DNA from: Tissierella sp. Yu-01 | GTDB lineage: Bacteria > Bacillota > Clostridia > Tissierellales > Tissierellaceae | DNA: 24,000 nucleotides | Assembly: GCF_029537395.1 (NCBI RefSeq) | Contig: NZ_CP120677.1 | Location: forward strand, 2,108,566 to 2,132,565 | Direction: 5' to 3' | Part shown: positions 3,063 through 22,070 of the stretch, piece after piece | Layout: each line of letters begins with the position of its first letter | Numbering within the stretch: the stretch's first letter is position 1 | The notes under the pieces: model-generated | The model's input: the letters and a program-made list of their open reading frames with translations, nothing else | What the model was told of the DNA's origin: nothing | The model's database searches: none | Position numbers and translations under genes: made by a program

Positions 3063-4070
3063 TTAGTTATTCACTGATTTAAGTTGCTTTCCTGCTCTCA
3101 AGTCACTTCTCATACCTTGAATAATTGAATCCATCTTTTCTAATTCAGTTAATATGGATTTCTCTTCTTTACTTGTTTCAATTATCTTAGATATTCCACC
3201 ATTTTTAATTACAATTCTCTTATCTGCAATTAATGCTAATGTTGGGTCATGAGTAGCCATTAGAACTATCTTATCCTTGCTGACTAATAGGTCTAAAGCT
3301 TTCTTTCTATCTATACCTGCGTTTTCTATTTCATCTATAAGTACTATAGGTGATGAACTTAAAATGGCAGTATCTGCAATCATCAATGCTCTTGACTGAC
3401 CACCACTTAATGCAGTTACAGGTGTATCTAGATCAAACTTCTCACCAGCTAAATTATTGGCTGCTTCTATTATTTTCTGTGTAGTTTCTTCTACATCTTC
3501 AACTAATCTACTTTGAGCATGTAGTTCTAAGAACTCCTTTACAGTTAAATCCATTACAAAGTTCATATTTTGTGATAATTGTGCTACAAGCTTATTATTA
3601 GATGAGAATCTCCATTTCATATCTGGAACTTCTCCATTAATTAGTATAGTTCTACCAGTTGGTGTATCATTTTGAGCTGTCCATTCTATATCTGCTAGGA
3701 GCCTACTCTTACCTGAACCTGTAGGACCTACAATGGATATAATCTCAGATTTATTAATGATAAATTCCTTAAACCCCTCAGAATTCTTTGATTTATCATG
3801 GCCTGGTAGAATTGTTAAGGATTCAATCCCTACTTCATCCTTTATACCTAAAAATTCTTTCATTTGATTTATAAAAGCTTCAAGATCATCTTTTAATCTA
3901 TCTTTATCAATAGCCCAATCTTCAATATCTTCCTCAGAAAAATGATTTAGATACTCATCGAAAGTTTTTTCCTCGAAACCTCTTACATCAAGCTTATTAT
4001 CTTCAAAGTACGTCTCAACAAAAGGATATTTATTAATTAATTCATTAATAGTTAGATTATTCATAGTCAT
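3063..4070 (-). CDS. ABC-type ATPase (single nucleotide-binding domain) with an N-terminal extension of about 100 aa; no cognate permease nearby
   Basis: Walker A GPTGSGKS, signature LSGGQ, Walker B LIDEIE and H-loop ATHD are all present. The start is ambiguous (GTG 4073, ATG 4070, ATG 4064) and overlaps the stop of the upstream gene, implying translational coupling. Confidence 0.85.
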   Translation of the reverse strand: MTMNNLTINELINKYPFVETYFEDNKLDVRGFEEKTFDEYLNHFSEEDIEDWAIDKDRLKDDLEAFINQMKEFLGIKDEVGIESLTILPGHDKSKNSEGFKEFIINKSEIISIVGPTGSGKSRLLADIEWTAQNDTPTGRTILINGEVPDMKWRFSSNNKLVAQLSQNMNFVMDLTVKEFLELHAQSRLVEDVEETTQKIIEAANNLAGEKFDLDTPVTALSGGQSRALMIADTAILSSSPIVLIDEIENAGIDRKKALDLLVSKDKIVLMATHDPTLALIADKRIVIKNGGISKIIETSKEEKSILTELEKMDSIIQGMRSDLRAGKQLKSVNN

Positions 4071-4758
4071 CACCTAAATCCATCTTTCTTACATTACCCA
4101 TTTGGAAAGCTTCACCTATTCTCGTTTCACCAAGACAGTAAGAACACATTGCAGCAGGCATTGGGAATCTTAACTCCATACCTTGAACTGAATCAATGTC
4201 CTTCTCCTTATCAATTAGTAATGTACTTAGCTCAAATGCTCCTTGTCCAGTTAAACCATTAATATGGATTGTCATGGCTCTAGGATTTACAGAGCTTACC
4301 TTAGAAGCAAACACTTCTCTTTCAGCCTGGGAAACTATATCCCCTTTAGTAATGACTACAATATCAGCTGATTTTAACATCGGACCAATTTTCTTAGGTG
4401 TATTTATACCTGATAAATTATCTATAACACATACACCCTTGATTTCCTTAATATAAGGTGAACATCTATTACAAAGACCCGCCGATTCGGTTATTAACAA
4501 ATCTAAACCTAATTTTAAACCCCATTGTACAACTTCTTCAATATTAGATGCGAAGAAATGATCTGGACATAGGGCTCCTGATAAACCTTTCTTTACTGGT
4601 ATACCTGCCTTCTCATATAAAATATCATCATCTGTATAAAGGCAATCAAATTTTACTACACCTACTGAAATATTTCTTTGTTTTAGTGCATCTATTGTTT
4701 TTAATATAATTGAGGTCTTTCCTGATGAAGGAGGACCTGAAAATACTACTAAATTCAT
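4057..4758 (-). CDS. G3E-family (HypB/UreG/CobW-like) P-loop GTPase, putative metallochaperone
   Basis: 233-aa ORF with P-loop GPPSSGKT, an ESAGL switch-like motif followed by CNRCSP, and a TKGD (NKxD-type) specificity motif. Additional Cys pairs are present (CPDH, and a C-terminal CSYC). RBS AGGAGGAAAG lies upstream. Confidence 0.75.
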   Translation of the reverse strand: MNLVVFSGPPSSGKTSIILKTIDALKQRNISVGVVKFDCLYTDDDILYEKAGIPVKKGLSGALCPDHFFASNIEEVVQWGLKLGLDLLITESAGLCNRCSPYIKEIKGVCVIDNLSGINTPKKIGPMLKSADIVVITKGDIVSQAEREVFASKVSSVNPRAMTIHINGLTGQGAFELSTLLIDKEKDIDSVQGMELRFPMPAAMCSYCLGETRIGEAFQMGNVRKMDLGDDYE

Positions 4759-6200: not shown

Positions 6201-6440
6201 ATGTTTACTACAATTCAAAAGTGGGGTAATAGTCAAGCCGTTAGAATACCTAAGGCTATTCTAGAAATGGCTAATCTAAGGGAAAATGACAATGTAGAAT
6301 TAAGAGTTCATGAAGGCAATCTACTAATTATTCCTGTTAAAAAACATAAATCCCTAGAGCAACGAATTGCCGAATATGAAGGAGAATACCATTGTAGCGA
6401 ATGGGAAACTAGTGATCCTATAGGAAAAGAGGTACTATAA
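6201..6440 (+). CDS. mazE: MazE/PemI-type antitoxin (AbrB/SpoVT swapped-hairpin fold)
   Basis: The sequence MFTTIQKWGNSQAVRIPKAILEMANL... carries the classic KWGNS.A.RIP antitoxin motif. RBS GAGAGGTGA lies upstream. The stop overlaps the toxin start (TAATG). Confidence 0.9.
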   Translation: MFTTIQKWGNSQAVRIPKAILEMANLRENDNVELRVHEGNLLIIPVKKHKSLEQRIAEYEGEYHCSEWETSDPIGKEVL

Positions 6441-6772
6441 TGACATATATTCCAGAACAAGGAGATATTATATTTATAGAATTTAATCCTCAGGTCGGGC
6501 ATGAGCAAAAAGGTAAAAGACCGGCCTTAGTTGTAAGTAATTACACATTTAACAAATTCACTAAATTGGCAATGCTATGCCCAATTACCAATACGGATAG
6601 AAGCTTTCCTTTGCATGTTAAACTAGATGAAAGAACGAAAACTACAGGAGTCATCATGTGTGAACAGGTAAAATCCCTAGATTACAATGCCAGAGCAATA
6701 TCCTTTTATGAAAGATCACCAGAAGATATAGTAGCAGAAGTTAAAGATGTTTTACTTGGATTCATTGAATAA
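6440..6772 (+). CDS. mazF: MazF/PemK-type endoribonuclease toxin
   Basis: 110 aa: YIPEQGDIIFIEFNPQVGHEQKGKRPALVVS...CPIT...DQVKSLDY-like motifs align by eye with E. coli MazF/ChpB. Confidence 0.9.
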   Translation: MTYIPEQGDIIFIEFNPQVGHEQKGKRPALVVSNYTFNKFTKLAMLCPITNTDRSFPLHVKLDERTKTTGVIMCEQVKSLDYNARAISFYERSPEDIVAEVKDVLLGFIE

Positions 6773-6839: not shown

Positions 6840-7226
6840 ATGGAGATAACCTATGAAAAGTCAACGACTAAACTATTTGATGAAGCTATAGAAAGTATCA
6901 AGAAAGAACTTCAGGAAAGAAAATTTGGTGTACTTTGGGAATTAAACTTCAAAGAAAAACTTGCAGAGCATGGAATAGAATTTAAAAATAATTTTAAGAT
7001 TTTGGAAGTTTGTAATCCTCAAAAGGCTAATGAAGTTTTATCAAAACATATTGAGGTTGGATATCTTCTTCCATGTAAAATGGTAGTATATGAAAATGAA
7101 GGAAAAGTATTTATAGGAACTGCAAAACCTGAAAAGCTAATGGGAATGATGGGATATGCTGATCTAAGCAATATAGCTTCTGAAGTTGAGTGGATTTTAA
7201 TTGAAGCTATTGACGCAGCAGTATAA
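6840..7226 (+). CDS. DUF302 domain protein
   Basis: The ORF track starts at TTG 6792. ATG 6840 is preferred because AAGGAG lies 8 nt upstream. Size (128 aa) and motifs (FGVLWELNF...ILEVCNPQKA...LLPCKMVVYE) fit DUF302. Confidence 0.7.
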   Translation: MEITYEKSTTKLFDEAIESIKKELQERKFGVLWELNFKEKLAEHGIEFKNNFKILEVCNPQKANEVLSKHIEVGYLLPCKMVVYENEGKVFIGTAKPEKLMGMMGYADLSNIASEVEWILIEAIDAAV

Positions 7227-7276: not shown

Positions 7277-8563
7277 TTAATTACCTAATTGATTATAGAA
7301 TTCTACAAAGCCATGCTCTAAATCTATAACCACAACATATTTCCATTGGCTATCTCCATAGGTTTCATGCTTATCTTCTTCATAAAGACTTGGGTATAAA
7401 TCAGGAGTTTTAATTAAATTAATATTCTCATCAACATATCTTTTTATAAAATCATTAGCCAATTTTAAAGCCTCATCTTGGGTTAATTTGTTTGTTTCTA
7501 AGTCATAACTATAATTCTTTAAATGGTATTGAATAAGTTTCTGATCATTATTAAATAATGCTTCCAACTTGATAAGAACCTCATCCTCATCTTTTACATT
7601 TCGTAAGTAAAATAAATTATAATCAGGATTTGGTTTTCTTAAGGTATAAATTTCATTACGGTTAAAAACATTCTCTGGTACATAATTGTCCAAAATATTA
7701 TTTAATATCCCAATTTCAGTTTTATAACTTTCCTTATCAATTAATATATTATCATCAAGTTTCTTAAAAGAAGCTAATACTCGTTGCCCTTCATTCCAAA
7801 TCTTAGTGTACGAATCCTTAGTCTCAGGGTAATACTGGAAGTCTAAATCAAATATAGCTTCTAAATAATTGCCACTCTCATAGTAGAGAATAAAATTAGT
7901 ATCATAAGGTATTGTAGCAATTACTGGATATTCACTATATCTGACTTCAAATACTGGCCCAAAACTGTTAAATCCATCTTCTATAAATTTCTCAGCGGAT
8001 TTCTTGTCATAAACGTACAAATTTCCGTCCTTTGTTTCAATTATGGCTTCTCCCTTCCATGAGTTAGGCATATTTAATGTATATCCATATTCATCATTTG
8101 TATAAATAAATGTGTTATCTGTTATGGCTTCGTCTTTATATTTTCCAACCATAGCTATTTGATTCTTCTGGTCCCATATAACCTCTTCACCAAGTCCTTC
8201 AGATATAAATCTCAATGGTACAAATGTCCTTCCATCCTTTATAAAGGTTTTTACATCCAATACTACCTCTTTCCCATCAACTTCTGCCTTATTTAAGGCA
8301 ATTGTAATAGCTATATTTATATCATCTTTAAGAATATTTATTGTCTTAGTTTCATCTAGGTACTCTACCTGAAAACCTAATTCTTCAGAGATGTATCTAA
8401 TTGGTACAGATACAACACCACTATCAAAAACAGGATCTACATCCATATAAAGAAACTTACCATTTACGCATATCTTAACTGAACTACTTTCTGCCATGGT
8501 CGGTGTGGTTATAAACATTATTAATATCATTAGAAGTATCATAAACTTACTTTGTTTTTTCAT
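7277..8563 (-). CDS. Secreted protein with a copper-amine-oxidase N-terminal (stalk) domain and an uncharacterised C-terminal region
   Basis: Signal peptide MKKQSKFMILLMILIMFITTPTMA. Two half-repeats (..VSVPIRYISEELGFQVEY.. and ..GRTFVPLRFISEGLGEEVIW..) are typical of the Cu_amine_oxidN1 domain common in Clostridia. Confidence 0.75.
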   Translation of the reverse strand: MKKQSKFMILLMILIMFITTPTMAESSSVKICVNGKFLYMDVDPVFDSGVVSVPIRYISEELGFQVEYLDETKTINILKDDINIAITIALNKAEVDGKEVVLDVKTFIKDGRTFVPLRFISEGLGEEVIWDQKNQIAMVGKYKDEAITDNTFIYTNDEYGYTLNMPNSWKGEAIIETKDGNLYVYDKKSAEKFIEDGFNSFGPVFEVRYSEYPVIATIPYDTNFILYYESGNYLEAIFDLDFQYYPETKDSYTKIWNEGQRVLASFKKLDDNILIDKESYKTEIGILNNILDNYVPENVFNRNEIYTLRKPNPDYNLFYLRNVKDEDEVLIKLEALFNNDQKLIQYHLKNYSYDLETNKLTQDEALKLANDFIKRYVDENINLIKTPDLYPSLYEEDKHETYGDSQWKYVVVIDLEHGFVEFYNQLGN

Positions 8564-8975: not shown

Positions 8976-9218
8976 CTATTCGTTAGCAAAGTTTTTTGTT
9001 ATTGAAACCCTCCATACTTCAGGACCTTCCTCAAGGTATTCCCAGTTGAAGAAACCTTCTCTTTCAGCTTGGAATTGATAATATAATGGCTTTGGATCAT
9101 GGTCGTTTATCAATTCCATCTTTTCACCTTTGCCAAGGGAATCAAATGTTTCAAAAATTACTCTATGTTTATCTACTGGCTTATATTCTCTAGCATCAAC
9201 TGTTTTTGCAAATACCAT
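8976..9218 (-). CDS. DUF2249 domain protein
   Basis: 80 aa. The stretch ...HRVIFETFDSLGKGEKMELINDHDPKPLYYQFQAEREGFFNWEYLEEGPEVWRVSITK matches the DUF2249 pattern as I recall it (..G..l.l..dHdP.PL...l.......w.y...gP..w.v.i.k). RBS AAAGGAG lies upstream. Confidence 0.7.
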   Translation of the reverse strand: MVFAKTVDAREYKPVDKHRVIFETFDSLGKGEKMELINDHDPKPLYYQFQAEREGFFNWEYLEEGPEVWRVSITKNFANE

Positions 9219-9260
9219 TTAATCATCTCCTTTTCAAATTATTGTTTCCAGTTTGTTATA

Positions 9261-9304
9261 AAAAATCACTCCTGTATCATAATGATACCCTTGGAGTGAT
9301 TTTT
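9261..9304 (-). terminator. Strong hairpin plus U-tract ending the agrB transcription unit
   Basis: AAAAATCACTCC...GGAGTGATTTTT is a perfect 12-bp outer stem, with an inner GTATCAT/ATGATAC stem. On the minus strand it is followed by TTTTTTAT. Confidence 0.7.
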
Positions 9305-9379
9305 ATATAAACACAAATATTAAACTAATAAAGAATGATATTGTTGACGTAGTTGATTCTATTTTTCAACCTTTCCGAT

Positions 9380-9481
9380 TTAATATCTTTCTAATGATTT
9401 GTTCCAGTATAGAACTATTCCTTTTGCTATTGTACAAATAAATCCAGTACCTATTAATAGTACATCCAAAATTACGGACAT
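9380..9481 (-). CDS. Possible 33-aa hydrophobic peptide downstream of agrB (MSVILDVLLIGTGFICTIAKGIVLYWNKSLERY)
   Basis: Hand-found ORF in the position where agrD normally sits. The RBS is weak (AGGTTGGA). It lacks the AgrD C-terminal EP..P motif. Confidence 0.25.
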   Translation of the reverse strand: MSVILDVLLIGTGFICTIAKGIVLYWNKSLERY

Positions 9482-9558
9482 TAAATAATCCAACCTATTT
9501 GCGTTTTGCCTATCATTATATATCAACTCTAGTTTTAATTATACCATAAACCTACCAG

Positions 9559-10143
9559 TTATATGGTAGTTATTGTAACCTCATTACTTAGTTTCATATT
9601 TATTGCAATAGCCATCAATGAACAAGCTATCACAAAAAATGCTCTATATTCCTGTCCAAAAACTAATAGTAGAATTTCCAAAAATAAGACCAAGGTAATA
9701 ATTTCGTTTTTCTTTCTACTACACCTTTCTATTTCACTGGCTGTTTTAGGTCTGTTTATATTAACTATTGAATCTGTTAGATATATTTTGATGACAGAAT
9801 AAATTAGAGAAATTATTCCTATTATCAGTTGCATTTGCTTTGAAAATATTATCGCAGGAACTATAATAAGTATGTATACCAGCATTGTTAACATCAGGCA
9901 TTTACCATATGTTTTACAGTGGAATCCCCCCGTATATCTTTTTACAGATATAAAAACCACCATAAATATAATGGTAAACTCTATAGTTTCTAGTAAAGTT
10001 CCTGCGAGTAATAGCAACAATATAGTAATTAGATTATTTAACAGTAATTCTAATCCATAGGAACATATATCAATATCTTCCTTTTCTATTATCTGATTTT
10101 GTTCTAATAAAAAAACTATGCTATTTATAAGTTTCTTTAGCAT
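9559..10143 (-). CDS. agrB: AgrB-family membrane endopeptidase (AgrD-processing enzyme)
   Basis: 194-aa polytopic protein. The motif VKRYTGGFHCKTYGKC carries the conserved R..GG.H-x6-C catalytic His/Cys pair with the same 7-residue spacing as S. aureus AgrB H77/C84. RBS AAGGAGG lies upstream. Confidence 0.88.
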   Translation of the reverse strand: MLKKLINSIVFLLEQNQIIEKEDIDICSYGLELLLNNLITILLLLLAGTLLETIEFTIIFMVVFISVKRYTGGFHCKTYGKCLMLTMLVYILIIVPAIIFSKQMQLIIGIISLIYSVIKIYLTDSIVNINRPKTASEIERCSRKKNEIITLVLFLEILLLVFGQEYRAFFVIACSLMAIAINMKLSNEVTITTI

Positions 10144-10156
10144 CTTTGATGCCTCC

Positions 10157-10359
10157 TTAATTTATAAATAGCATAGCATATGTTTTATTTGTTTTTTGTT
10201 TTTATGTTAAACTGGTAGCTTTTTTGGTTAAACTCGTAATATGTAAATTAATTGTTCTTAAATATTTGATGAATCTAATAAATTTAAATAAAAATTCTAT
10301 TTATAAGTCATGTATCCCAGACCTATAAATAGCATAGAACATATCTCCCCAGCATTTAA
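10157..10359. repeat. About 203-bp repeat, copy 1 (promoter module plus upstream flank), paired with 11986-12189
   Basis: The two copies align by eye over their whole length with scattered mismatches. Each runs from just upstream of the downstream gene's RBS to the stop codon TAA of the preceding ORF. Confidence 0.8.
10206..10238 (-). promoter_or_regulatory. LytTR-type direct-repeat boxes (copy A) upstream of agrB
   Basis: Plus strand: GTTAAACTGGTA-gcttttttg-GTTAAACTCGTA. On the minus strand this reads TACGAGTTTAAC-N9-TACCAGTTTAAC, with a 21-bp period. The conserved extended -10 TGcTATGCT (complement of 10170-10178) lies 27 nt downstream. Confidence 0.65.
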
Positions 10360-10565
10360 TCCTGCTCACTGGAAGAATTCTTATTAATTGTTGCAATAAT
10401 AAAAATTAAGCTGCTAATATTTAGGGCAATTAAAAGGTAAAGCGAGTATACTAACATTGCAATATCACCTAGAGGTGATGTAATACTAGTCATTAATAAA
10501 AGCAAAATAAACGAAATAAAAAATCCAGTCAATAATGAAATAATTCCTAACATAAAAATTATCAC
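10356..10565 (-). CDS. Small membrane protein (69 aa, two hydrophobic helices)
   Basis: RBS AGAGGAGTG lies 8 nt upstream. A TATAAT hexamer (complement of about 10635-10640) sits between it and the upstream terminator, so it may have its own promoter. Confidence 0.55.
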   Translation of the reverse strand: MIIFMLGIISLLTGFFISFILLLLMTSITSPLGDIAMLVYSLYLLIALNISSLIFIIATINKNSSSEQD

Positions 10566-10656
10566 TCCTCTTGTTATGATCTTGCAAGAATTTGTTCAGT
10601 CATTGAATATCGATACGGTATTTCTACCACTAACATTATAATAGCATTTATGTAAT

Positions 10657-10693
10657 AAAAAGGAAACCCGTTTTAAAATAAGTTTCCTTTTTT
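10657..10693 (-). terminator. Terminator after the 312-aa gene
   Basis: AAAAAGGAAAC-(14 nt)-GTTTCCTTTTT, with T-runs on both strands. Confidence 0.7.
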
Positions 10694-10711
10694 AGTCAAT
10701 AGTAATTTTAT

Positions 10712-11650
10712 TTATCTTATTCTTACTCTTTCTCCATAATCTCTAGAATGAATATAATAATCATCTGGATTCATAGTTTTAACAGAGTGTACAGGCTCAA
10801 AACTTAACCCAAGATCATCAGGGCTTACTGATACAGACGGATGTGCGCTATAAGTTGAATGACCATATCGGATTACCATAGCCGCTTCTGGAACCCTACC
10901 TGATTTTGTAAATGCACAGTATGCTCTTCCTCTCATTGCATAATATGATCCCTCCCGTAAGTCAAATGTAGTTTCCATAGCATGAATTTCATCAGTTGGA
11001 TAGAAATCATATATTTCAGTATTTCGATCGTCATCGACATCATAGTAATAAATTCTATGATATGATAAGTCATCATCAAAATACATACCCTCACTTACTA
11101 CAGCACCAATGATATCCGTTTTTGTTACTACAGGCATCACATCCCATTCCCAGTCAAAGCGTACTCTAAATGTTGTTGTTCTATCATCTCGATCATATTC
11201 ATGTCTGCTAAAATGTACTTCGCAATATAAATCTGAAAATATTCCCTGAATTGACACATCAGTGCCATCGTAATCCTTAATCTTTTCAATTCTCTCTTTT
11301 GTATAACCAAGCATTTCTAATTCTTTATCGCTTTTATTTTTTAATTCAATTATTATATTATCAACATCAAACTCTTTAATTTTTTTTATATCAGCTGAAC
11401 TCAAACCTTGTTGTCTTAATGTAGCTTCGCTTTTTTTCTTCAAGTTCATTAAGGCATCATACTCATTCACCTTAAAACTGGTTATAAATTTGTCGTAACC
11501 ATTTTCTGCCGCAATTTCATCTTGTTTAATTAGCTCCTCTCGGCTTAGACTTTTTAATGTAGGCATGCTTTCTGCATAAGTAGTAACTGGTGTTGCAAAT
11601 ACTATTAACGTAAATACAGCTAAAAGTAAAGATAAGATTTTTTTCTTCAT
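10712..11650 (-). CDS. Secreted protein of unknown family (312 aa), cargo of the agrD1 operon
   Basis: Signal peptide MKKKILSLLLAVFTLIVFATPVTTYA/ES. An internal duplicated helical motif is present (QGLSSADIKKIKEFDVD / MLGYTKERIEKIKDYDGTD). The C-terminal half is rich in D, Y and R. The start lies 18 nt after the agrD1 stop, with RBS AAGGGAG. Confidence 0.8.
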   Translation of the reverse strand: MKKKILSLLLAVFTLIVFATPVTTYAESMPTLKSLSREELIKQDEIAAENGYDKFITSFKVNEYDALMNLKKKSEATLRQQGLSSADIKKIKEFDVDNIIIELKNKSDKELEMLGYTKERIEKIKDYDGTDVSIQGIFSDLYCEVHFSRHEYDRDDRTTTFRVRFDWEWDVMPVVTKTDIIGAVVSEGMYFDDDLSYHRIYYYDVDDDRNTEIYDFYPTDEIHAMETTFDLREGSYYAMRGRAYCAFTKSGRVPEAAMVIRYGHSTYSAHPSVSVSPDDLGLSFEPVHSVKTMNPDDYYIHSRDYGERVRIR

Positions 11651-11668
11651 AATAACAAACTCCCTTCA

Positions 11669-11830
11669 TCATTTGTTTTTAATGGGTAACTTATCAATCT
11701 TCTTCCTCAACTTCTCCGACATCTTTGGTTCATAAAAATAGAATACTGACATTGTATTTGGCGAAGTTGCTGCTGACTTTATTGATGCCTTTGCTACTGA
11801 TTCTAAAATGTTTTTTCTAAAGTTTTTCAT
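11669..11830 (-). CDS. agrD: AgrD-family autoinducing-peptide precursor, paralog 1 (53 aa)
   Basis: Hand translation: MKNFRKNILESVAKASIKSAATSPNTMSVFYFYEPKMSEKLRKKIDKLPIKNK. It has an amphipathic N-terminal leader, a short hydrophobic core and a YEPKM.EKL tail resembling the clostridial AgrD recognition motif. RBS GGGGGTGA lies upstream. It is below the ORF-track size cut-off. Confidence 0.75.
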   Translation of the reverse strand: MKNFRKNILESVAKASIKSAATSPNTMSVFYFYEPKMSEKLRKKIDKLPIKNK

Positions 11831-11985
11831 GCTATTTCACCCCCATTTTTATATTAATTGCAATAGCATTAATTAGTTTGCTATTACAAAAGCATATACT
11901 ATGTGCATGTCCAAATCTTAGGTAAATAAATTTATTAAATAAAAAAAGCTATTTTATAAGATTCAGCATCTTAGTCGATACTGCA

Positions 11986-12189
11986 TTAACTTACAAATAG
12001 CATAGCATGTATTTTCTTGATATTTTAATTTTATGTTAAACTGGTAGGTTTTTTGGTTAAACTGGTGATATGTAAATTAATTTCTCTTAAATATCGGATG
12101 TATCTAATAAATTTAAATAAAAAATGCTATTTATAAGTCATGCATTTCAAACATAAAAATAGCATAGAACATATCTCCCCAGCATTTAA
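11986..12189. repeat. About 204-bp repeat, copy 2 (paired with 10157-10359)
   Basis: See copy 1. It contains the promoter module for agrD1. Confidence 0.8.
12035..12067 (-). promoter_or_regulatory. LytTR-type direct-repeat boxes (copy B) upstream of agrD1
   Basis: GTTAAACTGGTA-ggttttttg-GTTAAACTGGTG with a 21-bp period. The extended -10 TGcTATGCT is conserved downstream. A leader of about 160 nt precedes agrD1. Confidence 0.65.
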
Positions 12190-12304
12190 CTTTGATTACT
12201 TAAACTATCTATCATTAAACACTTTAACTCATAAAAAAGATAGAATACTAACACTATATTTGGTGGAGATTCTACTTTATCTTTAATAAATAATTCTGGA
12301 AATA
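12188..12304 (-). pseudogene. Decayed third agrD copy
   Basis: The DNA aligns with agrD1 (tagaatactRacaYtRtatttgg...). The reading frame gives ...PELFIKDKVESPPNIVLVFYLFYELKCLMIDSLSNQS*. There is no start codon (an in-frame TAA lies just upstream), the ring Ser is replaced by Leu, and the EP motif is lost (YELK). Confidence 0.55.
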
Positions 12305-12308
12305 TTAG

Positions 12309-12600
12309 TTATTTTTGACAAAAACACCCATATGAGGTATATGCCAATACAATATTAAGGATGTAAGCTGCTTTTTCTAATAACCCACTTTCTTCTAGTT
12401 CATAACTCGCTTTCTCATTTCTTAAAATATATAGAGCAATTAACGTTAATACTACTATTATTTTAGAAATTATCGACACCCATAACTACAATGGCAGCAA
12501 GGTTTCCTAGTTCCGTCAAGTTTATCCTTGCTCCATATGATATGGCCAGATACAATACAAATGATGTCAGAATTACTGCAAAAATTGTTTTACCTATTAA
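12309..12600 (-). pseudogene. Frameshifted small membrane-protein gene lacking a canonical start
   Basis: A good RBS AAAGGAG is followed by TTAATAGGT with no ATG, GTG or TTG. The first frame (..IGKTIFAVILTSFVLYLAISYGARINLTELGNLAAIVVMGVDNF*) continues in the +1 frame (IISKIIVVLTLIALYILRNEKASYELEESGLLEKAAYILNIVLAYTSYGCFCQK*). Confidence 0.4.
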
Positions 12601-12624
12601 CTTATATCTCCTTTAAATTTGTAA

Positions 12625-12676
12625 CTTACAAATAGCATAGCATATGATTTAATTGTTTTTTTATGTTAAACTGGTA
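12625..12676 (-). promoter_or_regulatory. Truncated promoter module (copy C): conserved -10 region plus a single LytTR-type box
   Basis: acaaatagcatagcatatg...atGTTAAACTGGTAattc. The second box is absent, and homology ends at 12676. Confidence 0.45.
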
Positions 12677-13122
12677 ATTCATCCTTAGATTTAAGTCAGG
12701 AAGAAATAAATAACCTTTTGGTGGACTTAGGAAATGAAGTATTTGAGAATAAAGATTACGAGAATAATCTTGATTCAATAGTTGAAAAAGTCTTTAGAGA
12801 ATTTGGAATAGAAGGTTCTTCCAACTTGGATGCTGCAAAGTCTAGAATTAAGGTATCTAAATCTAATTTTAAATAGTAACGCAATTTTAAATTAACACAT
12901 TTATACTAAGAGCATGATTCTTTGTTTTATTTTGAGGAATGGGATACTAGAAGACAAAGGCGAAAACTGGTAACGATCTATCAACATCTTAGACATTGAT
13001 AGATAAAATTTGTATTCCATTTTGTTAGAGATTTTCAATTTACAATTGTTCTTTTTCATTATAATAGATAACGAATGAACCCATAACTGCAATAGCAGTG
13101 GGATTTCAGTAAGCGTTTAAAA

Positions 13123-13159
13123 TACAATATGCTCCCTTATTTTAGGAGAGCATATTGTA
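13123..13159 (-). terminator. Terminator of the agrD2 operon
   Basis: TACAATATGCTC-(13 nt)-GAGCATATTGTA, followed on the minus strand by TTTT. It lies 86 nt after the stop of the 88-aa gene. Confidence 0.55.
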
Positions 13160-13245
13160 GGTATATTTCACTTGTTTATTATATATGTAACTTGTTCTAT
13201 GACTCTTTATAAGAGCTTAGGATACTGCAGAAATGTCGTTGATAA

Positions 13246-13512
13246 TCAAGCAAGTATTAACAATGTTCCAATAATCCAAACTGCAGCAACTACAAGTAAA
13301 CTCTTTAAATTGACTTCATTTGATATAGTTCTCCGTTTTAACTCTGTAATAAAGATAATCCCCATCGTAGCTGAATAACTTATCAACTCATAAATATTAC
13401 TATATTTAATTATAAGCTCCTTTGATTTGTTGATAAATGTATCAAACCAAATAAAGTTTAATAACAAAGCTATTATTAAAATGAATATTAAAGAATTATA
13501 TGCTTTATTCAT
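13246..13512 (-). CDS. Small three-TM membrane protein (88 aa), last gene of the agrD2 operon
   Basis: RBS AGAGGAG overlaps the end of the upstream gene (stop at 13527), implying coupling. Three hydrophobic segments are present. Confidence 0.7.
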   Translation of the reverse strand: MNKAYNSLIFILIIALLLNFIWFDTFINKSKELIIKYSNIYELISYSATMGIIFITELKRRTISNEVNLKSLLVVAAVWIIGTLLILA

Positions 13513-13526
13513 ACATCTTCTCCTCT

Positions 13527-14192
13527 TTAATATCTACCATCCCACTCTTCCACTAATTTTCTGTACGAAGAATCTTCATAGATTCTTACCCAAGGTTTTA
13601 CTTCAGGTCTAGAAGTAGTTATAGGATCTTTATAATATTCACGTTTTACATACCAGTATTCATCTAAATAATTCTCAAGTATTCTTTCAGCAAATATTAT
13701 GAGTACTGGTGCTACAACACCTGAACCTAAAACCATGCCTAAAACTGTAACAATAGCCGTTAAATCGCGGACTTCAACAGCTACCCTACCTTGATCAGTA
13801 TTAAAAAGCACCCATTTATGCCCAGCGGCCAACCTATTACTCAATTCAAGGTTATTTAGCTCTTCATAAGTTCTTTCTGGAGATATTTTAGCAACAACAT
13901 CACCATTTAATGTCACAATACCGCTAACCTTATCATACTCAGTTATATAACTCTTAGCAATTGTTCTCCTTAATGTTGAGCTTTCGTAATATTCAAACTT
14001 AGTAGGTTCACCATCAATAAGCAGTACATTATATCCTATATACTCAAGTTTATTCGTTAGTTTATCTTTATCTACTATAGACAAATTACTATCTAATGTC
14101 AAATAATCATACTCATCAGAATTAGCAAAACTAGCAGGAACTAGCGTTAACATGATGCAAAAAGCCATAAATACCGATATAAATTTTTTCAT
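13527..14192 (-). CDS. Exported, C-terminally anchored protein of unknown family (221 aa), cargo of the agrD2 operon
   Basis: Signal peptide MKKFISVFMAFCIMLTLVPASFA/NS. A late TM segment (LTAIVTVLGMVLGSGVVAPVLIIFA) is followed by a Y/W/K/E-rich tail of about 50 aa. RBS GAGGGGGA lies upstream. Confidence 0.8.
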   Translation of the reverse strand: MKKFISVFMAFCIMLTLVPASFANSDEYDYLTLDSNLSIVDKDKLTNKLEYIGYNVLLIDGEPTKFEYYESSTLRRTIAKSYITEYDKVSGIVTLNGDVVAKISPERTYEELNNLELSNRLAAGHKWVLFNTDQGRVAVEVRDLTAIVTVLGMVLGSGVVAPVLIIFAERILENYLDEYWYVKREYYKDPITTSRPEVKPWVRIYEDSSYRKLVEEWDGRY

Positions 14193-14252
14193 TAAACTTC
14201 CCCCTCTTATAGTATGATATTGTTACTATTTAACATCCAGTTTTTCATGGTT

Positions 14253-14411
14253 CTATTGCCTTAACCTTGCACACTCTACCTCCTTCCTCAACTTCTCTGG
14301 CATTTTTGGCTCATAAAAGTAGAATACTGACATTGTACTTGGTGAAGTTTCTGCTACCTTTATTGATGCCTTTGCAACTGATTCTAAAATGTTTTTCCTA
14401 AGTTTCTTCAT
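14253..14411 (-). CDS. agrD: AgrD-family autoinducing-peptide precursor, paralog 2 (52 aa)
   Basis: Hand translation: MKKLRKNILESVAKASIKVAETSPSTMSVFYFYEPKMPEKLRKEVECARLRQ. It carries the full YEPKMPEKL motif. RBS AGGAGGTGA lies upstream. It is below the ORF-track size cut-off. Confidence 0.8.
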   Translation of the reverse strand: MKKLRKNILESVAKASIKVAETSPSTMSVFYFYEPKMPEKLRKEVECARLRQ

Positions 14412-14568
14412 GCTATTTCACCTCCTTTTTAACTTAGCAGCATGTCCAAGTATTGAAAAAACAAATTCAATAAATAGAAAATGCTACTTATAGGCCTCTG
14501 CATCTTAATTGATGCAGTTTTAAATTATAAATAGCATAGCATATGTTTTCTGAACTTTTTAATTTTAT

Positions 14569-14601
14569 GTTAAACTGGTAGGTTTTTTGGTTAAACTGGC
14601 A
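14569..14601 (-). promoter_or_regulatory. LytTR-type direct-repeat boxes (copy D) upstream of agrD2; the distal box overlaps the agrC stop codon
   Basis: GTTAAACTGGTA-ggttttttg-GTTAAACTGGC with a 21-bp period. The last agrC codons ..TTG CCA GTT TAA are themselves the distal box. The extended -10 TGcTATGCT is conserved downstream. Confidence 0.65.
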
Positions 14602-15913
14602 ATTCACCATTCAATGATACAGCCATATATAATTTAAACTCTTCATTTAAGACCTCATGATCAATAAATCCGTTATATTTATTTGCTACATCTTCTAAAA
14701 TAAATAGACCATATCCATGGCTATCTTTATCTTTCTTAGATGTAATCCCCCTACGAATTTGTACATCCTTGTTGATACTATTACTTATTTCAAAATTAAG
14801 ATAATCCTTCTTAGGGTTAATAACTATTTCTATCCTTCTCTTAGATTTGTCCTCTATCTTTAAACATGCCTCTATGGCATTATCTATGCTATTAAAGAGC
14901 AGGGAGCTAAAATCCGGTGGATTTATTGGAATATCAGGAGGAATCACTGCTTTTACTTTAAAGGCTATATCATTGTTTACAGCTTCAATTCTCTTTTGAT
15001 TTAAAACCATATCTGCTATTTCATTTCCTGTTCTTATGGTTATAGGAAAGTTATCCATATTCTCTATGATTACGTTGATATACTCATTTATTCTATTATT
15101 TGAACTAGTGGATGCCAGATTCTTAATATTTGCTAGATGATTGTTGATGTCATGTCTTATTTTCCTTATTTCTAAATTTGTCTCCTGATTCATTTTTAAA
15201 TATCTTCCTGTAGCCTTGTAGTGCATATCTAATATTGCTCTTTCTTTTTGTTTGATATAATGTTTGTTTAACTCTGTTAAAAACAGATATACCACCCCAT
15301 TTATAAATAGGAAGGTACCACTGATAAAAATCAAAAGAATATCTAAGCCTTCTACCTCACCAGCTACTCTATTTAGATCAAACAAAAATATCATGCTAAT
15401 AGCTGATATCATATAAATTAGCCATACAAAAAGATTGTATTTTCTGGGTAGAATATTTTTATGAGGCTTTACATACTCCGCTATTATTTTTATCAACTTA
15501 TATTTAATCAACTTAACAATAAGTCCTGTTATTAGTCTAGCTGTTCCGTGCAATAAAACCATTTCAGCAGCAGGTATTTTAAATATAAATCTTAGTAGAT
15601 TCATTGTCAGGATTTCAGCTGCTATTTGGATAAGATTAAATATCAGATTATAGAATATCTTATCATTCAAATTACCTTTAAAAAGTAAAGAATATACAAA
15701 ATATATACTAACTCCAATTACCATCCTATAGGATTGTCTAATTTCTAGGATTGTCAGTACAAAAACTACTATAGAAATTAAAAATGACAAAACAACATAT
15801 ACTTTTAACTTTATTTTTTCATTTAGTCCTAATATATGTTTAAAAAACATAGTAAATAATATGGCTTCTACAAAACACCAAAAATACTCAAATCCTAAAT
15901 AAAAATGTTCCAT
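14591..15913 (-). CDS. agrC: AgrC-like (HPK10 family) membrane sensor histidine kinase
   Basis: The N-terminal half of about 200 aa has 6-7 hydrophobic segments. H-box IRKIRHDINNHLANI, N-box LLFNSIDNAIEA and G-box SHGYGLFILEDV are present. There is no HAMP or PAS domain. Confidence 0.85.
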   Translation of the reverse strand: MEHFYLGFEYFWCFVEAILFTMFFKHILGLNEKIKLKVYVVLSFLISIVVFVLTILEIRQSYRMVIGVSIYFVYSLLFKGNLNDKIFYNLIFNLIQIAAEILTMNLLRFIFKIPAAEMVLLHGTARLITGLIVKLIKYKLIKIIAEYVKPHKNILPRKYNLFVWLIYMISAISMIFLFDLNRVAGEVEGLDILLIFISGTFLFINGVVYLFLTELNKHYIKQKERAILDMHYKATGRYLKMNQETNLEIRKIRHDINNHLANIKNLASTSSNNRINEYINVIIENMDNFPITIRTGNEIADMVLNQKRIEAVNNDIAFKVKAVIPPDIPINPPDFSSLLFNSIDNAIEACLKIEDKSKRRIEIVINPKKDYLNFEISNSINKDVQIRRGITSKKDKDSHGYGLFILEDVANKYNGFIDHEVLNEEFKLYMAVSLNGELPV

Positions 15914-15923
15914 CCTGTCCCTC

Positions 15924-16628
15924 CTATGAAGTAAAAAAGGCCTTTTTTACTTCAGATATCTTATATCTTGAAACCTGTAATACTTCCCCATTGTCTAGCT
16001 CAATGGTTTCCTTGTCTATCCTCTTTACAAAGTTAATGTTAACCATCATCCCCCTATAGATACTAACAAATCCTTTACTGGAGACTACTTTTTCTATTTC
16101 TTTGAAAACTGTTATAGTAGTTATATATGTATCTGTTAACGTTCTGATATTGACCCTTCTATTAACCATGTTAAAGTAAAGAATTTCTGAAATTGCCAAT
16201 TTTATAGTTCCTTCTTTTGTTTTAAACTCATATCTTGTACTATTTTCTTGTAACCTTTTTAAAATGTCTTCTAAAACTGCATATATTTCTTCATCAAAAT
16301 ATGATTTCCTGATAAATCTAAAAGTATTAAGTTCAAAGACCTTATATACTTCCTCATCTAAAGAAGTTAAAAATATAAGTATAAAATTATTATCTATTTC
16401 CCTAATTACCCTTGCTGCTTTGATGCCATTCAATCTTGGCATATCTATATCGAAAAATATCACATCATACCCAATACCATTACGTTTTGCTTCTCTAACT
16501 ATTTCTTCCCCATTGTTATATTCATCAATATCAACTTTATTTTGATTATCCCTAAAAAAGGAATTAACTTTTAATCTTAATCTCTCCATAAAAATATTAT
16601 CATCCTCACAAATTGCAACTTTTACCAT
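15924..16628 (-). CDS. agrA: AgrA-like response regulator (REC plus LytTR DNA-binding domain)
   Basis: REC motifs are present (VAICEDD, FFDIDMPRLNG). The C-terminal region of about 100 aa has the LytTR pattern (..ISEILYFNMVNRRVNIRT...FVSIYRGMMVNINFVKRID...LQVSRYK). RBS AAGGAGGGG lies upstream. An extended -10 TGaTATAAT is the complement of 16675-16683. Confidence 0.88.
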   Translation of the reverse strand: MVKVAICEDDNIFMERLRLKVNSFFRDNQNKVDIDEYNNGEEIVREAKRNGIGYDVIFFDIDMPRLNGIKAARVIREIDNNFILIFLTSLDEEVYKVFELNTFRFIRKSYFDEEIYAVLEDILKRLQENSTRYEFKTKEGTIKLAISEILYFNMVNRRVNIRTLTDTYITTITVFKEIEKVVSSKGFVSIYRGMMVNINFVKRIDKETIELDNGEVLQVSRYKISEVKKAFFTS

Positions 16629-16732
16629 ATATACCCCTCCTTATGGTAGAAATCATGTTGTTGTTCTAAATTACATTATATCATTTTTTTATCATCTTAA
16701 TTTTACCTGAAATTTTCCACAGAAATAGAAAA

Positions 16733-16753
16733 AAGCTGAGAAAATCTCAGCTT
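16733..16753 (-). terminator. ftsH terminator
   Basis: AAGCTGAGA-aaa-TCTCAGCTT, followed on the minus strand by TTTTTT. It overlaps the ftsH stop codon by 2 nt. Confidence 0.75.
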
Positions 16754-18686
16754 ATTCTTTACCTATATCTATTTTATTTTCTTCTTCAACAACATCTACT
16801 TTATCTTGATCGTCTATGCTATCTTGTATATCTTTATTTCCTTCACTGTCTTTCTTATCTTCTTTATTTAAAAGCTCCATAAATTCAGTTCCTGTTATAG
16901 TTTCTTTTTCAAGAAGATAATTTGATAACTCTATTAGCTTATCTTTATTTTCGGTTAATATTTCTATTGCCTTATCGTAACATTCTTTTACTATTTTTTG
17001 AACTTCTTTGTCTATTAAGGCAGAAGTCTCTGGGGAACAAGCTAGTGATGCATCTCCACCTAGATATTGATTTGTTACGGTTTCTAAGGCAATCATACCA
17101 AATTTATCACTCATACCAAGTCTAGTAACCATTGCTCTTGCAAGTCTTGTTATTTTTTCTATATCATTACTTGCTCCAGAAGTGACGGAACCAAACATAA
17201 CTTCTTCGGCTGCTCTACCACCTATTAAGGTAGTTATCTTATTTAATATTTCTTCCTTGGACATCAATACATTTTCCTGTTCCTCTACTTGCATTGTATA
17301 TCCAAGAGCACCTGATGTTCTTGGTATAATCGTAATCTTAGTAACAGGAGCTGAATCGGTCTGCTTAGCAGCAACAAGTGCGTGACCTATTTCATGATAA
17401 GCAATTATTTTCTTTTCCTTTTCCTGTATAACAGCACCTTTTCTTTGATATCCTGCAATAATAACTTCAACTGATTCAACTAAGTCTGTTTGGTTTACAA
17501 GATTTCTTCCCATTCTAACTGCTCTTAGGGCTGCTTCATTTATTATATTTGCAAGCTCAGCACCTGATGCACCTGCAGTCATCCTTGCAACTTCATTAAA
17601 GTCTATACTCTCTTCCATTTTAATCTTTTTAGCATGAACATCTAGGATAGCTTCTCTACCCTTTAAGTCTGGAAGGTTTACTGGTATCCTTCTATCAAAT
17701 CTACCTGGTCTTAATAAGGCTTTATCAAGTGATTCTGGTCTGTTAGTGGCAGCTAATATTACCACTCCCTTTTTACCATCAAAACCATCCATTTCAGATA
17801 GCAATTGGTTTAAAGTTTGTTCTCTTTCATCATTTCCGCCAAATCCAGCTCCATCTCTCTTCTTACCTATGGTATCAATCTCATCTATAAATACTATACA
17901 AGGTGCCTTATCCTGCGCTTGTTTAAATAAATCCCTAACTTTTGCAGCACCAAGACCAACAAACATCTCAACAAAATCTGATCCTGATATAGAAAAGAAA
18001 GGTACCTTAGCTTCACCAGCAACAGCCTTTGCCAACAAAGTCTTACCTGTTCCTGGTGGTCCAACTAATAATGCCCCCTTCGGCATTGTAGCACCGATAT
18101 CAGCATACTTCTTTGGATTGTGTAGGAAGTCAACTATTTCTACTAAAGCTTCCTTTGCTTCATCCTGACCAGCTACATCCTTAAAGGTCTTTTCATCCTG
18201 ATCCGCTGGAACATATACTTTTGCATTACTCTTACCAAAGGACATTGCATTTCCACCCATACCTTTGGTCATTCTTCTCATTAGCATAGGTCCTAATACA
18301 AAGAACAATACCATTGGAAGTCCTAATGAAAGGAAATAATATAGAAGCGGTGACATTTCTTCAGGTACTATCTTTGTTTGTTTAATGTCTTTCTCAAGCA
18401 AAATATCTACTAAAGCAGGATGATCCATCCTACCTGTTGAGTAATACTCTAATTCCCCACTTTCATCTTTAATTGAGAATTTTATTTCAGTCTCTGTAAT
18501 CTCTACTTCTTCTATATCATTATTTTCAACATGATTTATGAAAGTTGTATAATCTACTTCAGTTATCTTCTTTTGATCAAGTAAACTTGGAAATAAAAAT
18601 CTATTTAACATCATCAATACTACCAGCGATATTAGATAATAAAAAACTATGGGCTTCTTAGGTGTTTGTGATTTCTTCTGATTCAT
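16752..18686 (-). CDS. ftsH: ATP-dependent zinc metalloprotease FtsH
   Basis: Two N-terminal TM segments, AAA+ Walker A GPPGTGKT, Walker B IVFIDEID, the SRH region and the zinc site HEIGHA are all present. Confidence 0.95.
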   Translation of the reverse strand: MNQKKSQTPKKPIVFYYLISLVVLMMLNRFLFPSLLDQKKITEVDYTTFINHVENNDIEEVEITETEIKFSIKDESGELEYYSTGRMDHPALVDILLEKDIKQTKIVPEEMSPLLYYFLSLGLPMVLFFVLGPMLMRRMTKGMGGNAMSFGKSNAKVYVPADQDEKTFKDVAGQDEAKEALVEIVDFLHNPKKYADIGATMPKGALLVGPPGTGKTLLAKAVAGEAKVPFFSISGSDFVEMFVGLGAAKVRDLFKQAQDKAPCIVFIDEIDTIGKKRDGAGFGGNDEREQTLNQLLSEMDGFDGKKGVVILAATNRPESLDKALLRPGRFDRRIPVNLPDLKGREAILDVHAKKIKMEESIDFNEVARMTAGASGAELANIINEAALRAVRMGRNLVNQTDLVESVEVIIAGYQRKGAVIQEKEKKIIAYHEIGHALVAAKQTDSAPVTKITIIPRTSGALGYTMQVEEQENVLMSKEEILNKITTLIGGRAAEEVMFGSVTSGASNDIEKITRLARAMVTRLGMSDKFGMIALETVTNQYLGGDASLACSPETSALIDKEVQKIVKECYDKAIEILTENKDKLIELSNYLLEKETITGTEFMELLNKEDKKDSEGNKDIQDSIDDQDKVDVVEEENKIDIGKE

Positions 18687-21779: not shown

Positions 21780-22070
21780 TATATTCAAAATTATCTAAAA
21801 GTTTTGAAGGAGATAAAAATACTTGATTACATCGGAAGAGAGCTGGTGGTTGGTGCAAACCAGTGTTGTATGGTATATAATAATCACTCCTGAACTGCAC
21901 AGCTGAAATTTTAGTAGGCAATGCCGGAATTATTTCGCCACCGTTATTAGGCTAGAATTATTTGTTGATTCGAAGAGTCAATTTACGTGAGTAAATTGAA
22001 AATTAGAGTGGTACCACGGATAATCCCCGTCTCTTAGGCTTAATGCTTTTGAGTCGGGTTTTTTTATAAT
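21780..22070 (+). promoter_or_regulatory. T-box riboswitch leader (tRNA-sensing transcription attenuator)
   Basis: Ordered conserved elements are present: AG-box AGAGAG (21837-42), distal-loop TTGGTGCAAA (21850-59), GAA-containing specifier region (21892-21900), AGTA box (21913-16), F-box CCGTTA (21941-46), and T-box AATTAGAGTGGTACCACGG (22001-19). The terminator is CCCGTCTC...GAGTCGGG plus T7 (22026-22066). Confidence 0.85.

Follow-up and report, generated by a model that had tools for sequence, protein, structure and literature searches.

Between positions 9380 and 16628 of a 24-kb stretch of DNA from Tissierella sp. Yu-01 (class Tissierellia; the whole 24,000-nucleotide (nt) stretch is referred to as the window), the minus strand carries genes related to those of agr peptide quorum-sensing systems, and they are not arranged as an agrBDCA operon. 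This raises the question of whether genes dispersed in this way still constitute a signalling system, and why the genes for the signal precursor stand at the head of operons encoding secreted proteins. We propose that these genes probably form an agr-type (fsr-like) locus for peptide quorum sensing, rearranged yet intact and working. What was computed directly is the identity of the genes, the repeats, a gene spacing compatible with operons, the terminators and the recurrence of the arrangement in relatives.

The gene order is agrA-agrC / agrD2-cargo / debris / agrD1-cargo / agrB, where cargo denotes the protein-coding genes behind each precursor gene, and the open reading frame (ORF) coordinates and minus-strand orientation were confirmed. 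An earlier note on this DNA had proposed that the four agr functions are all there, in an order other than the canonical one, and had suggested profile searches, and in these the AgrB, AgrD, LytTR and AgrC-type (HPK10) kinase families were all matched. The agrA-like gene (15924–16628) encodes a response regulator of 234 amino acids (aa) with Pfam Response_reg (51.9 bits) and LytTR (52 bits) domains, and a full-length but weak match to NCBIfam AgrA. The agrC-like gene (14591–15913) encodes a 440-aa histidine kinase with an AgrC-type GHKL domain (HATPase_c_5, 64.3 bits); its N-terminal half is polytopic, with several hydrophobic segments in hydropathy plots, its translation contains the H-box RKIRHDINNH, and it is 59–75% identical to the kinases of related loci. 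The agrB gene (9559–10143) encodes a 194-aa membrane peptidase/cyclase (PF04647, 107.8 bits with a cut-off of 23). Residues R70, G75, H77 and C84 are essential in Staphylococcus aureus AgrB (PMC10196373), and R69, G72-G73, H75 and C82 are spaced like them here, as judged by comparing the translation with the published residues and without a pairwise alignment.

A single agrBDCA operon with agrD beside agrB is absent, and such a layout defines the staphylococcal arrangement rather than the family. Instead, as the earlier note had it, agrD is duplicated and unlinked from agrB, with agrD1 lying 1.5 kb and agrD2 4.1 kb away from it. No agrD copy was found 3' of agrB when six-frame translations were searched with the AgrD hidden Markov model (HMM); the candidate ORF located there, orf48 (9380–9526, minus strand, TTG start), has one hydrophobic segment and no AgrD likeness in the same search. 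No Rfam family reached threshold in 9200–16800, and there is thus no recognizable RNAIII-type RNA, divergent or otherwise, in this region.

The two precursor genes are short. The minus-strand gene agrD2 (14253–14411) encodes a 52-aa autoinducing peptide (AIP) precursor scoring 42.9 bits to TIGR04223 (cut-off 19), and agrD1 (11669–11830, minus strand) encodes a 53-aa precursor scoring 35.4 bits against the same cut-off. The concern that annotation could miss them was misplaced, as NCBI names both 'cyclic lactone autoinducer peptide'. The two precursors are 71% identical and have the core TMSVFYFYEPKM in common. In AgrD2 the predicted ring, Ser28–Phe32 (SVFYF), is followed by YEPKMPEKL. Because Ser28 is the only nucleophile giving a five-residue ring that ends just before the follower motif, the pheromone is predicted to be a short-tailed Ser28–Phe32 lactone, [SVFYF]. 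Serine lactones have been described in S. pseudintermedius, in Enterococcus faecalis (GBAP) and, as the agr2 peptide, in Clostridioides difficile (PMC12312760). Across the AIP-core codons 26–37, agrD1 and agrD2 differ by three synonymous and no non-synonymous substitutions, and both copies therefore look constrained. AgrD1 does carry a P38S substitution, the sole such change among six homologues; it falls in the P-x-x-P motif of the follower, presumably an AgrB recognition element (PMC8748961).

Each of agrD2, agrD1 and agrB is preceded by a common promoter module in which two ACCAGTTTAAC boxes 21 nt apart are followed by an invariant TGnTATGCT. Scanning the window for CCAGTTTAAC with up to one mismatch gave nine matches where 1.5 are expected, a number reached by none of 100 shuffled sequences. 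Seven of the nine lie within the locus, six as three pairs with a 21-nt period, together with one single box. The motif ATGCTATGCTATTT, which holds the extended -10-like element TGnTATGCT, has seven matches with up to two mismatches (0.72 expected) and is positioned 30 nt 3' of each proximal box; a generic sigma-70 scan was uninformative in this AT-rich DNA (52 sites, 51 expected). On the minus strand, P(agrD2) (14529–14599) has boxes at 14590–14599 and 14569–14578 and ATGCTATGCTATTT at 14529–14542. Its first box overlaps the agrC stop codon, and the 3' end of agrC is likewise joined through boxes to agrD in the related loci L005–L007 and L009. P(agrD1) (11995–12065, minus strand) has two perfect boxes at 12056–12065 and 12035–12044, with ATGCTATGCTATTT at 11995–12008. 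P(agrB) (10166–10236, minus strand) has boxes at 10227–10236 (CGAGTTTAAC, one mismatch) and 10206–10215, with ATGCTATGCTATTT at 10166–10179, directly followed by the agrB ribosome-binding site. Alignment of eight module copies from four organisms shows both boxes and TATGCTAT to be conserved. The layout resembles that of the AgrA sites upstream of P2 and P3 (PMC4227749), and we infer that the boxes mark AgrA-binding, autoinduced promoters. LytTR boxes before these three genes had been proposed earlier, and the enrichment over both expectation and shuffles bears this out.

All of the LytTR promoters also contain a 14-bp inverted repeat of the form GCTATTT(A/G)TAAGTT, 25–29 nt, AACTTATAAATAGC, located on the minus strand at 14490–14542, 11955–12008 and 10125–10179, and in relatives at L005 9862–9926, L009 5577–5641 and 8481–8545, L011 7108–7172, and L022 761–825. 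It begins within the -10-like element, and a second small hairpin is nested in it. Pairing is kept in 88.7% of cells, versus about 40% with one arm slid, and there are three covarying pairs (a score reached by 0 of 500 shuffles), which separate two lineages only. At P(agrB) the agrB ribosome-binding site and ATG lie in the loop, and codons 5–9 form the 3' arm. The repeat could act in the RNA, as a leader structure, or in the DNA, as an operator. P(agrB) and P(agrD1) are each preceded by one copy (10280–10370 and 12110–12200, respectively) of a 91-nt direct repeat with 82% identity between the copies; within it are a -10-like motif without boxes and an inverted repeat (GTTCTATGCTATTT, 10327–10340 and 12157–12170). 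This direct repeat may represent the fossil of a promoter, or else provide basal transcription into the LytTR promoters.

The region upstream of agrA is organized differently. A terminator for ftsH (16733–16753) lies upstream of a promoter-like, extended -10 element, TGATATAAT (16675–16683, minus strand), read from the sequence, and no CCAGTTTAAC-like box is present in 16629–16751. With the terminator and TGATATAAT in place and boxes lacking, agrA and agrC appear to lie outside the feedback loop, as reported for fsrA, whose promoter is constitutive (PMC5454873). Since the three boxed units include both agrD genes and agrB, and agrA-agrC is box-less, feedback is predicted to act on signal production and not on the receptor.

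The gaps between agrD1 and orf312 (18 nt) and between agrD2 and orf221 (60 nt) are short and have ribosome-binding sites; neither contains a hairpin, and both fold no better than shuffled sequence. Folding predicts a strong terminator-like hairpin after orf88 that ends the agrD2 unit (13123–13159, minus strand), and a terminator after orf312 (10657–10692, minus strand) with a 13-bp stem followed by the U-tract UUUUUAUU (free energy -12.3 kcal/mol, z-score -3.8). Boxes, folding and hydropathy thus agree with the proposal that each agrD is the first gene behind paired LytTR boxes and is followed, with no intervening terminator, by a gene for a signal-peptide protein, and agrD2-orf221-orf88 and agrD1-orf312 are presumably co-transcribed. 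The inclusion of orf69 in the agrD1 operon, as first suggested, does not hold, because the intrinsic terminator separates it from orf312; behind that terminator a -10-like element 5' of orf69, TGCTATTAT (10638–10646), can be read from the sequence, and orf69 is probably a separate unit outside the agrD1 transcript.

The cargo itself belongs to no described family, there being no Pfam or NCBIfam match for orf221, orf88, orf312 or orf69. In the agrD2 unit, orf221 (13527–14192, minus strand) encodes a protein with a Sec-type signal peptide (…PASFA/NS) and an internal hydrophobic segment at about residues 137–168; among 5.8 billion proteins the sole match is orf221 itself. The last gene of the unit, orf88 (13246–13512, minus strand), encodes a small protein with two hydrophobic segments. 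In the agrD1 unit, orf312 (10712–11650, minus strand) encodes a Sec-type signal peptide, a helical-repeat domain and a C-terminal beta-sandwich, and the small two-segment membrane protein gene orf69 (10356–10565, minus strand) is co-inherited with it. An HMM match of orf221 was rejected because it covered the signal peptide only, and orf221 is not a member of the orf312 family. The products of orf312, orf221 and both agrD genes match NCBI proteins of Tissierella sp. Yu-01 exactly, which places the window in that strain.

Close relatives of orf312 are few (five). A profile search against 1.84 billion representatives nevertheless recovered 895 clusters at E<=1e-3 and 617 at E<=1e-10; clusters are defined at 50% identity, and 895 is a lower bound. 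The family extends across Bacillota (Heliobacterium, Desulforamulus, Herbivorax and Clostridia metagenome-assembled genomes (MAGs)), and its members are all 'hypothetical' and without a Pfam domain. An AlphaFold (AF2) model built with 138 sequences has a mean local confidence (pLDDT) of 85.2 and a global one (pTM) of 0.78, with helical repeats at residues 37–125, and orf312 fits the family layout of signal peptide, helical repeats and beta-sandwich with conserved W..P.....D and YGH motifs. Foldseek searches of the PDB returned only generic immunoglobulin (Ig)-like adhesin and pilin domains (1amx, template-modelling score 0.42); a pore-forming toxin fold was considered and rejected, as those matches have root-mean-square deviations of about 19 Å and amount to noise. 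Near-invariant residues are E63, W169, P173, D179, Y202, G241, Y262 and H264, and the N-terminal repeats of the family (LxxxGYSxxxIxxIKxFD, twice) give weak sequence matches to the helix-hairpin-helix repeats of topoisomerase V. A small two-segment membrane gene is often located 3' of orf312-family genes (L002, L004, L018/L019).

The relationship of orf312 to agr is a loose one. Its closest homologues, in L002 and L004 (46–47% identity), are each followed by an orf69 homologue (58–66% identity), have neither agrD nor boxes upstream, and adjoin IS110 or other transposase genes; searching six-frame translations with the AgrD HMM found no agrD beside other orf312-family genes. The occurrence of the pair elsewhere without agrD and beside transposases suggests that orf312-orf69 is a portable, mobile module captured here behind agrD. 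The earlier note had accepted that finding the same genes in homologous loci with no association to agr components would count against its reading, and for orf312 as a dedicated agr output this is what is observed. Its description of the cargo as exported proteins of unknown family stands in that no family model exists, and has to be qualified in that orf312 is not specific to this locus, the members sampled from its family of at least 895 clusters being without agr neighbours.

We then compared the arrangement with related loci. AgrD homologues with the invariant core SPxTMSVFYFYEPKMPxK occur in a few metagenome contigs and two uncultured Tissierella MAGs; those two MAGs are also the only ones recovered with the AgrD-core DNA pattern, no further relatives were found with AgrC among GTDB representatives, and none with the AgrD-core pattern and AgrC alignment among JGI metagenomes. 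Loci L005–L008 have the order ftsH, a 174-aa gene, agrA, agrC, boxes and agrD, boxes and an agrB fossil, a 54-aa membrane gene, and further boxes. In L009/L010, boxes and agrD are followed by genes for a 320-aa signal-peptide protein and a 55-aa protein, agrB, a kinase without its sensor half, and another boxes-agrD pair. In L011/L012, boxes and agrD precede genes for a 335-aa signal-peptide protein and 55- and 58-aa proteins, then agrB, agrA and agrC. In L022, boxes and agrD are followed by a 224-aa signal-peptide protein gene, a terminator, a 52-aa gene, agrB, agrA, agrC, and boxes with a short ORF.

BLASTP comparisons among orf312, orf221 and the 320-, 335- and 224-aa cargo proteins gave nothing significant. 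The L009 320-aa protein is a probable remote member of the orf312 family (hhalign probability 85%, E 6.5e-6, signal peptide removed); the same assignment for the L011 335-aa protein (probability 15%) was rejected. L009 and L011 have common flanking genes and different cargo, so that what appears conserved is the order of agrD first, then a secreted protein, then a small membrane protein, together with the agrC-boxes-agrD junction, and the identity of the cargo, as far as these comparisons go, is not conserved across the clade. At 7161–8458 of L009, which belongs to an uncultured Tissierella MAG, agrB runs with an overlap into a truncated kinase that consists of the cytoplasmic half; the regulator gene and the sensor domain are lacking, whereas L011 has agrB-agrA-agrC at the orthologous site. 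The truncation may have produced a kinase blind to the signal, or the repeats may have led to a chimeric assembly.

These comparisons bear on whether the cargo is coupled to the signal at all. It could consist of incidental passengers, mobile modules of a secreted and a small membrane protein that landed behind agrD and are co-transcribed by accident with no selected link. The L002 and L004 pairs lying beside transposases without agrD or boxes, the unrelated contexts of distant orf312-family members and the lack of a detectable orf221 homologue all fit this. However, in five independent cassettes from at least four genomes the gene immediately 3' of agrD, behind the same boxes, encodes a signal-peptide protein, the position is kept at orthologous sites where the cargo differs, and the gaps are short and furnished with ribosome-binding sites. 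We therefore regard accidental carriage as unlikely. The comparative genomics called for by the earlier note thus gives a divided answer, in that the design of boxes, agrD and secreted protein recurs, and the sampled orf312 homologues lack agr neighbours. The repetition of the design in related Tissierella contigs supports by comparison the claim that signal and output genes are on one transcript.

A second explanation is suggested by the DNA between the two agrD units. The earlier note described about 1 kb of debris with a half-promoter here, and this is confirmed: 12189–13245 contains decayed cassettes (about 1 kb on the minus strand, 12189–13105) with a single-box promoter. These comprise, on the minus strand, a 3' fragment of a second copy of a 54-aa gene (13040–13105), the promoter (box 12665–12674, -10-like motif 12630–12643), an orthologue of the L008 54-aa membrane gene (12463–12597, 77.5% identity) whose start codon has changed from ATG to ATA, orf56 (12309–12479), and an agrD remnant (12189–12308) that retains 78% DNA identity to agrD1 and scores only 8.6 bits to the AgrD profile. 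The single box at 12665–12674 corresponds to the two-box promoter of L005/L008 minus exactly one 21-nt repeat unit. The only sizeable plus-strand ORF in the debris, a 52-aa candidate (12718–12876), has no family match. The 5' leaders of agrD1, agrD2 and the L005 agrD keep the ribosome-binding site, start codon and first codons of agrB; these agrB fossils indicate that the agrD promoters arose by copying P(agrB) along with the beginning of the agrB gene. The module repeats interrupt short-read assemblies, and L001 and L005–L008 end in them.

Is the entire locus, then, a decaying, non-functional remnant of a canonical agr operon scrambled by repeat-mediated recombination? The kilobase of fragments, with its destroyed start codon, agrD remnant and single-box promoter, would be expected of such a remnant, as would P38S in AgrD1 and the truncated kinase of L009. 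Yet the four core ORFs are full length with good profile scores and keep their essential residues, the three promoters retain both boxes and the -10 element, the AIP core has undergone only synonymous change between the agrD copies, and six AgrD variants from relatives all share one pheromone core. On balance wholesale decay is improbable, somewhat more so than accidental carriage of the cargo.

An intact but rearranged locus would be expected to work as follows. The agrA-agrC pair would be transcribed constitutively from an ordinary promoter without LytTR boxes, and AgrB and both AgrD precursors would be made at a basal level. AgrB would cut AgrD after Phe32 and close the Ser28–Phe32 lactone (ring SVFYF), with the leader removed by a protease not encoded in the locus. 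External peptide would activate AgrC, leading to phosphorylation of AgrA, and phosphorylated AgrA would bind the ACCAGTTTAAC repeats, which are paired at a 21-nt period and precede the invariant TGnTATGCT -10 element by about 30 nt, and switch on three units, agrD2-orf221-orf88, agrD1-orf312 and agrB. Transcription of these units is predicted to begin some 7 nt beyond TGnTATGCT, near 14520, 11986 and 10157 (minus strand), respectively. This would give positive feedback on signal production and none on the receptor, and every pulse of precursor mRNA would also carry a secreted or membrane cargo protein. The cargo slot would be exchangeable, as relatives keep the pheromone core and promoter and carry unrelated signal-peptide proteins with a small membrane protein, and the array would have grown, and be decaying, through recombination between copies of the promoter module. 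That AgrA binds the repeats, that the units are autoinduced and co-transcribed and that the ring is a lactone are predictions of this scheme, as is any function of the cargo.

The missing leader protease raises a further explanation, that the cargo proteins are accessory factors for maturation or export of the pheromone, perhaps the protease itself, and not outputs. In S. aureus the leader step is reported to need a separate membrane protease, MroQ (PMC9388083). The same pheromone core is accompanied by non-homologous cargo, however, orf312 has no match to a protease-like family or fold, and its family occurs mostly without agr genes, making such a role highly improbable. What the cargo does instead is a matter for conjecture. 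A variable secreted protein combined with a better-conserved small membrane protein would suit a toxin/immunity pair, an adhesin or matrix role would suit the Ig-like fold predicted for orf312 equally well, and antimicrobial activity is pure conjecture.

Several observations weigh against a working, rearranged locus with cargo as its output. AgrD1, without the second follower proline, may be processed poorly and be a weaker substrate, and the decayed cassettes together with the truncated L009 kinase suggest that some loci of this type are degenerating. Neither the closest homologues of orf312 nor four sampled distant members have agr neighbours, so that in these comparisons the cargo is not a component dedicated to agr. 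The comparisons cover a small set, a few Tissierella MAGs and short metagenome contigs, and start sites, AgrA binding and density dependence are predicted from sequence.

Among known systems, the nearest analogue in logic is the E. faecalis fsr system (fsrA, fsrBDC, gelE-sprE). Both have an AgrB-family enzyme, a serine-lactone pheromone and a constitutive regulator gene (both predicted here), and no RNAIII (PMC5454873, PMC12312760), and in both LytTR sites lie at the signal-production genes and at adjacent genes for secreted proteins (PMC5454873), with binding being predicted here. In fsr, however, the precursor sequence is part of fsrB or encoded along with it, and the autoinduced operon includes the kinase gene, whereas here agrD is apart from agrB and duplicated; gelE-sprE have their own promoter without a precursor gene, whereas here agrD heads the output operons. 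GBAP has a 9-residue ring, and here just one Ser is suitably spaced from the follower motif and would give a ring of five, so that a ring of the fsr type is not expected, and no precursor lies in frame with agrB or beside it.

The locus resembles S. aureus agrBDCA/RNAIII in its four protein families, its direct repeats with a period of about 21 nt, and the AgrB Arg/Gly/His/Cys residues (PMC4227749, PMC10196373). The S. aureus system differs in being a single agrBDCA operon with a divergent RNAIII and a ring Cys, whereas here the genes are split, there is no RNAIII and the ring residue is predicted to be Ser; furthermore, receptor and regulator are not under boxes here, and three or four AgrA-type promoters occur within 5 kb. 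Split or incomplete agr loci are known in clostridia. C. acetobutylicum has agrBD, agrCA and CA_C0082, an effector attached to the locus (PMC10301443), and C. autoethanogenum has agrD1C1B1 and agrD2C2, with two agrD genes per single agrB (PMC8748961). In these loci agrD is paired with agrB or agrC rather than with genes for secreted proteins, a multiplied LytTR-box promoter module is not described, and the CA_C0082 effector is LanM-like, cytoplasmic and encoded 3' of agrA. Outputs linked to the locus therefore have precedents in gelE-sprE of fsr (PMC5454873) and CA_C0082 (PMC10301443), and split agr loci, two agrD genes sharing one agrB, and linked effectors are all documented in clostridia (PMC8748961, PMC10301443, PMC12312760). 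The earlier contention that the output wiring differs from that of described agr systems holds for agrD heading the cargo operons, and the contrast is otherwise narrower than claimed, given the precedents for linked outputs and split loci.

Regulons of the pln, blp and spp type encode variable secreted products followed by small membrane immunity-like proteins, a likeness to the cargo pairs. These class II bacteriocin regulons are also reported to have several LytTR-repeat operons per locus and cassettes that shuffle between strains (PMC2714321, PMC7417737). They differ in using a linear inducer with a double-glycine leader and ABC/C39 export, compared with an AgrD/AgrB-type signal here, and the cargo here consists of Sec substrates of 220–335 aa, not small peptides. 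No double-glycine leader was found in small ORFs of 9380–16628, and no ABC/C39 gene, leaving the locus without these components of a three-component bacteriocin system; an ABC ATPase encoded at 3063–4073 is unrelated to the locus. Rgg/SHP and nisin-type lantibiotic autoinduction follow the same logic, in that the pheromone gene heads an induced operon with output genes. Their receptor and processing families (a cytoplasmic RRNPP regulator for Rgg/SHP, LanRK and a lanthipeptide for the lantibiotics) are unrelated to agr.

This is thus not a new kind of system, as all the component families and locus-linked outputs are precedented. A limited literature search, which is not proof of novelty, turned up no description of agrD detached from agrB and heading swappable secreted-protein operons, none of an AgrA-type promoter multiplied within one locus, and no paper describing agr in class Tissierellia.

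Elsewhere in the window, the plus strand carries a MazF/PemK-type toxin gene (6440–6772, PF02452, 92.7 bits), inside which a single box-like match, CTAGTTTAAC (6617–6626), lies on the opposite strand, probably by chance. About 1 kb downstream of agrB, a minus-strand gene (7277–8563) encodes a 428-aa protein with a signal peptide and a copper-amine-oxidase N-terminal-type domain (PF07833); no LytTR boxes are present upstream of it. The sole Rfam match in the whole window is a T-box leader (RF00230, 117.6 bits; 21795–22037, plus strand) upstream of a 397-aa ORF (22111–23304), unrelated to the locus.

If the proposed model holds, the locus would represent a distinct wiring of agr, with feedback on signal synthesis only, a constitutive receptor, and outputs carried on the precursor mRNA. 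It would provide testable predictions for the Tissierellia and a first regulatory handle on the secreted orf312 family, with its at least 895 clusters across Bacillota. A more tentative extension, which we consider possible rather than likely, is that Tissierella use one conserved pheromone, (x)TM-[SVFYF], as a common signal, and that exchangeable effector cassettes, each a secreted protein with its cognate small membrane protein (possibly toxin/immunity or adhesin/anchor), ride on the pheromone transcript, the effectors having diversified by recombination at the LytTR promoter module. Were this true, signal output would be tied stoichiometrically to effector output, and strains could diversify their effectors yet keep hearing each other. 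The locus would then be the agr equivalent of the bacteriocin loci blp and pln, and a natural coupling of signal production to a secreted, shared product.

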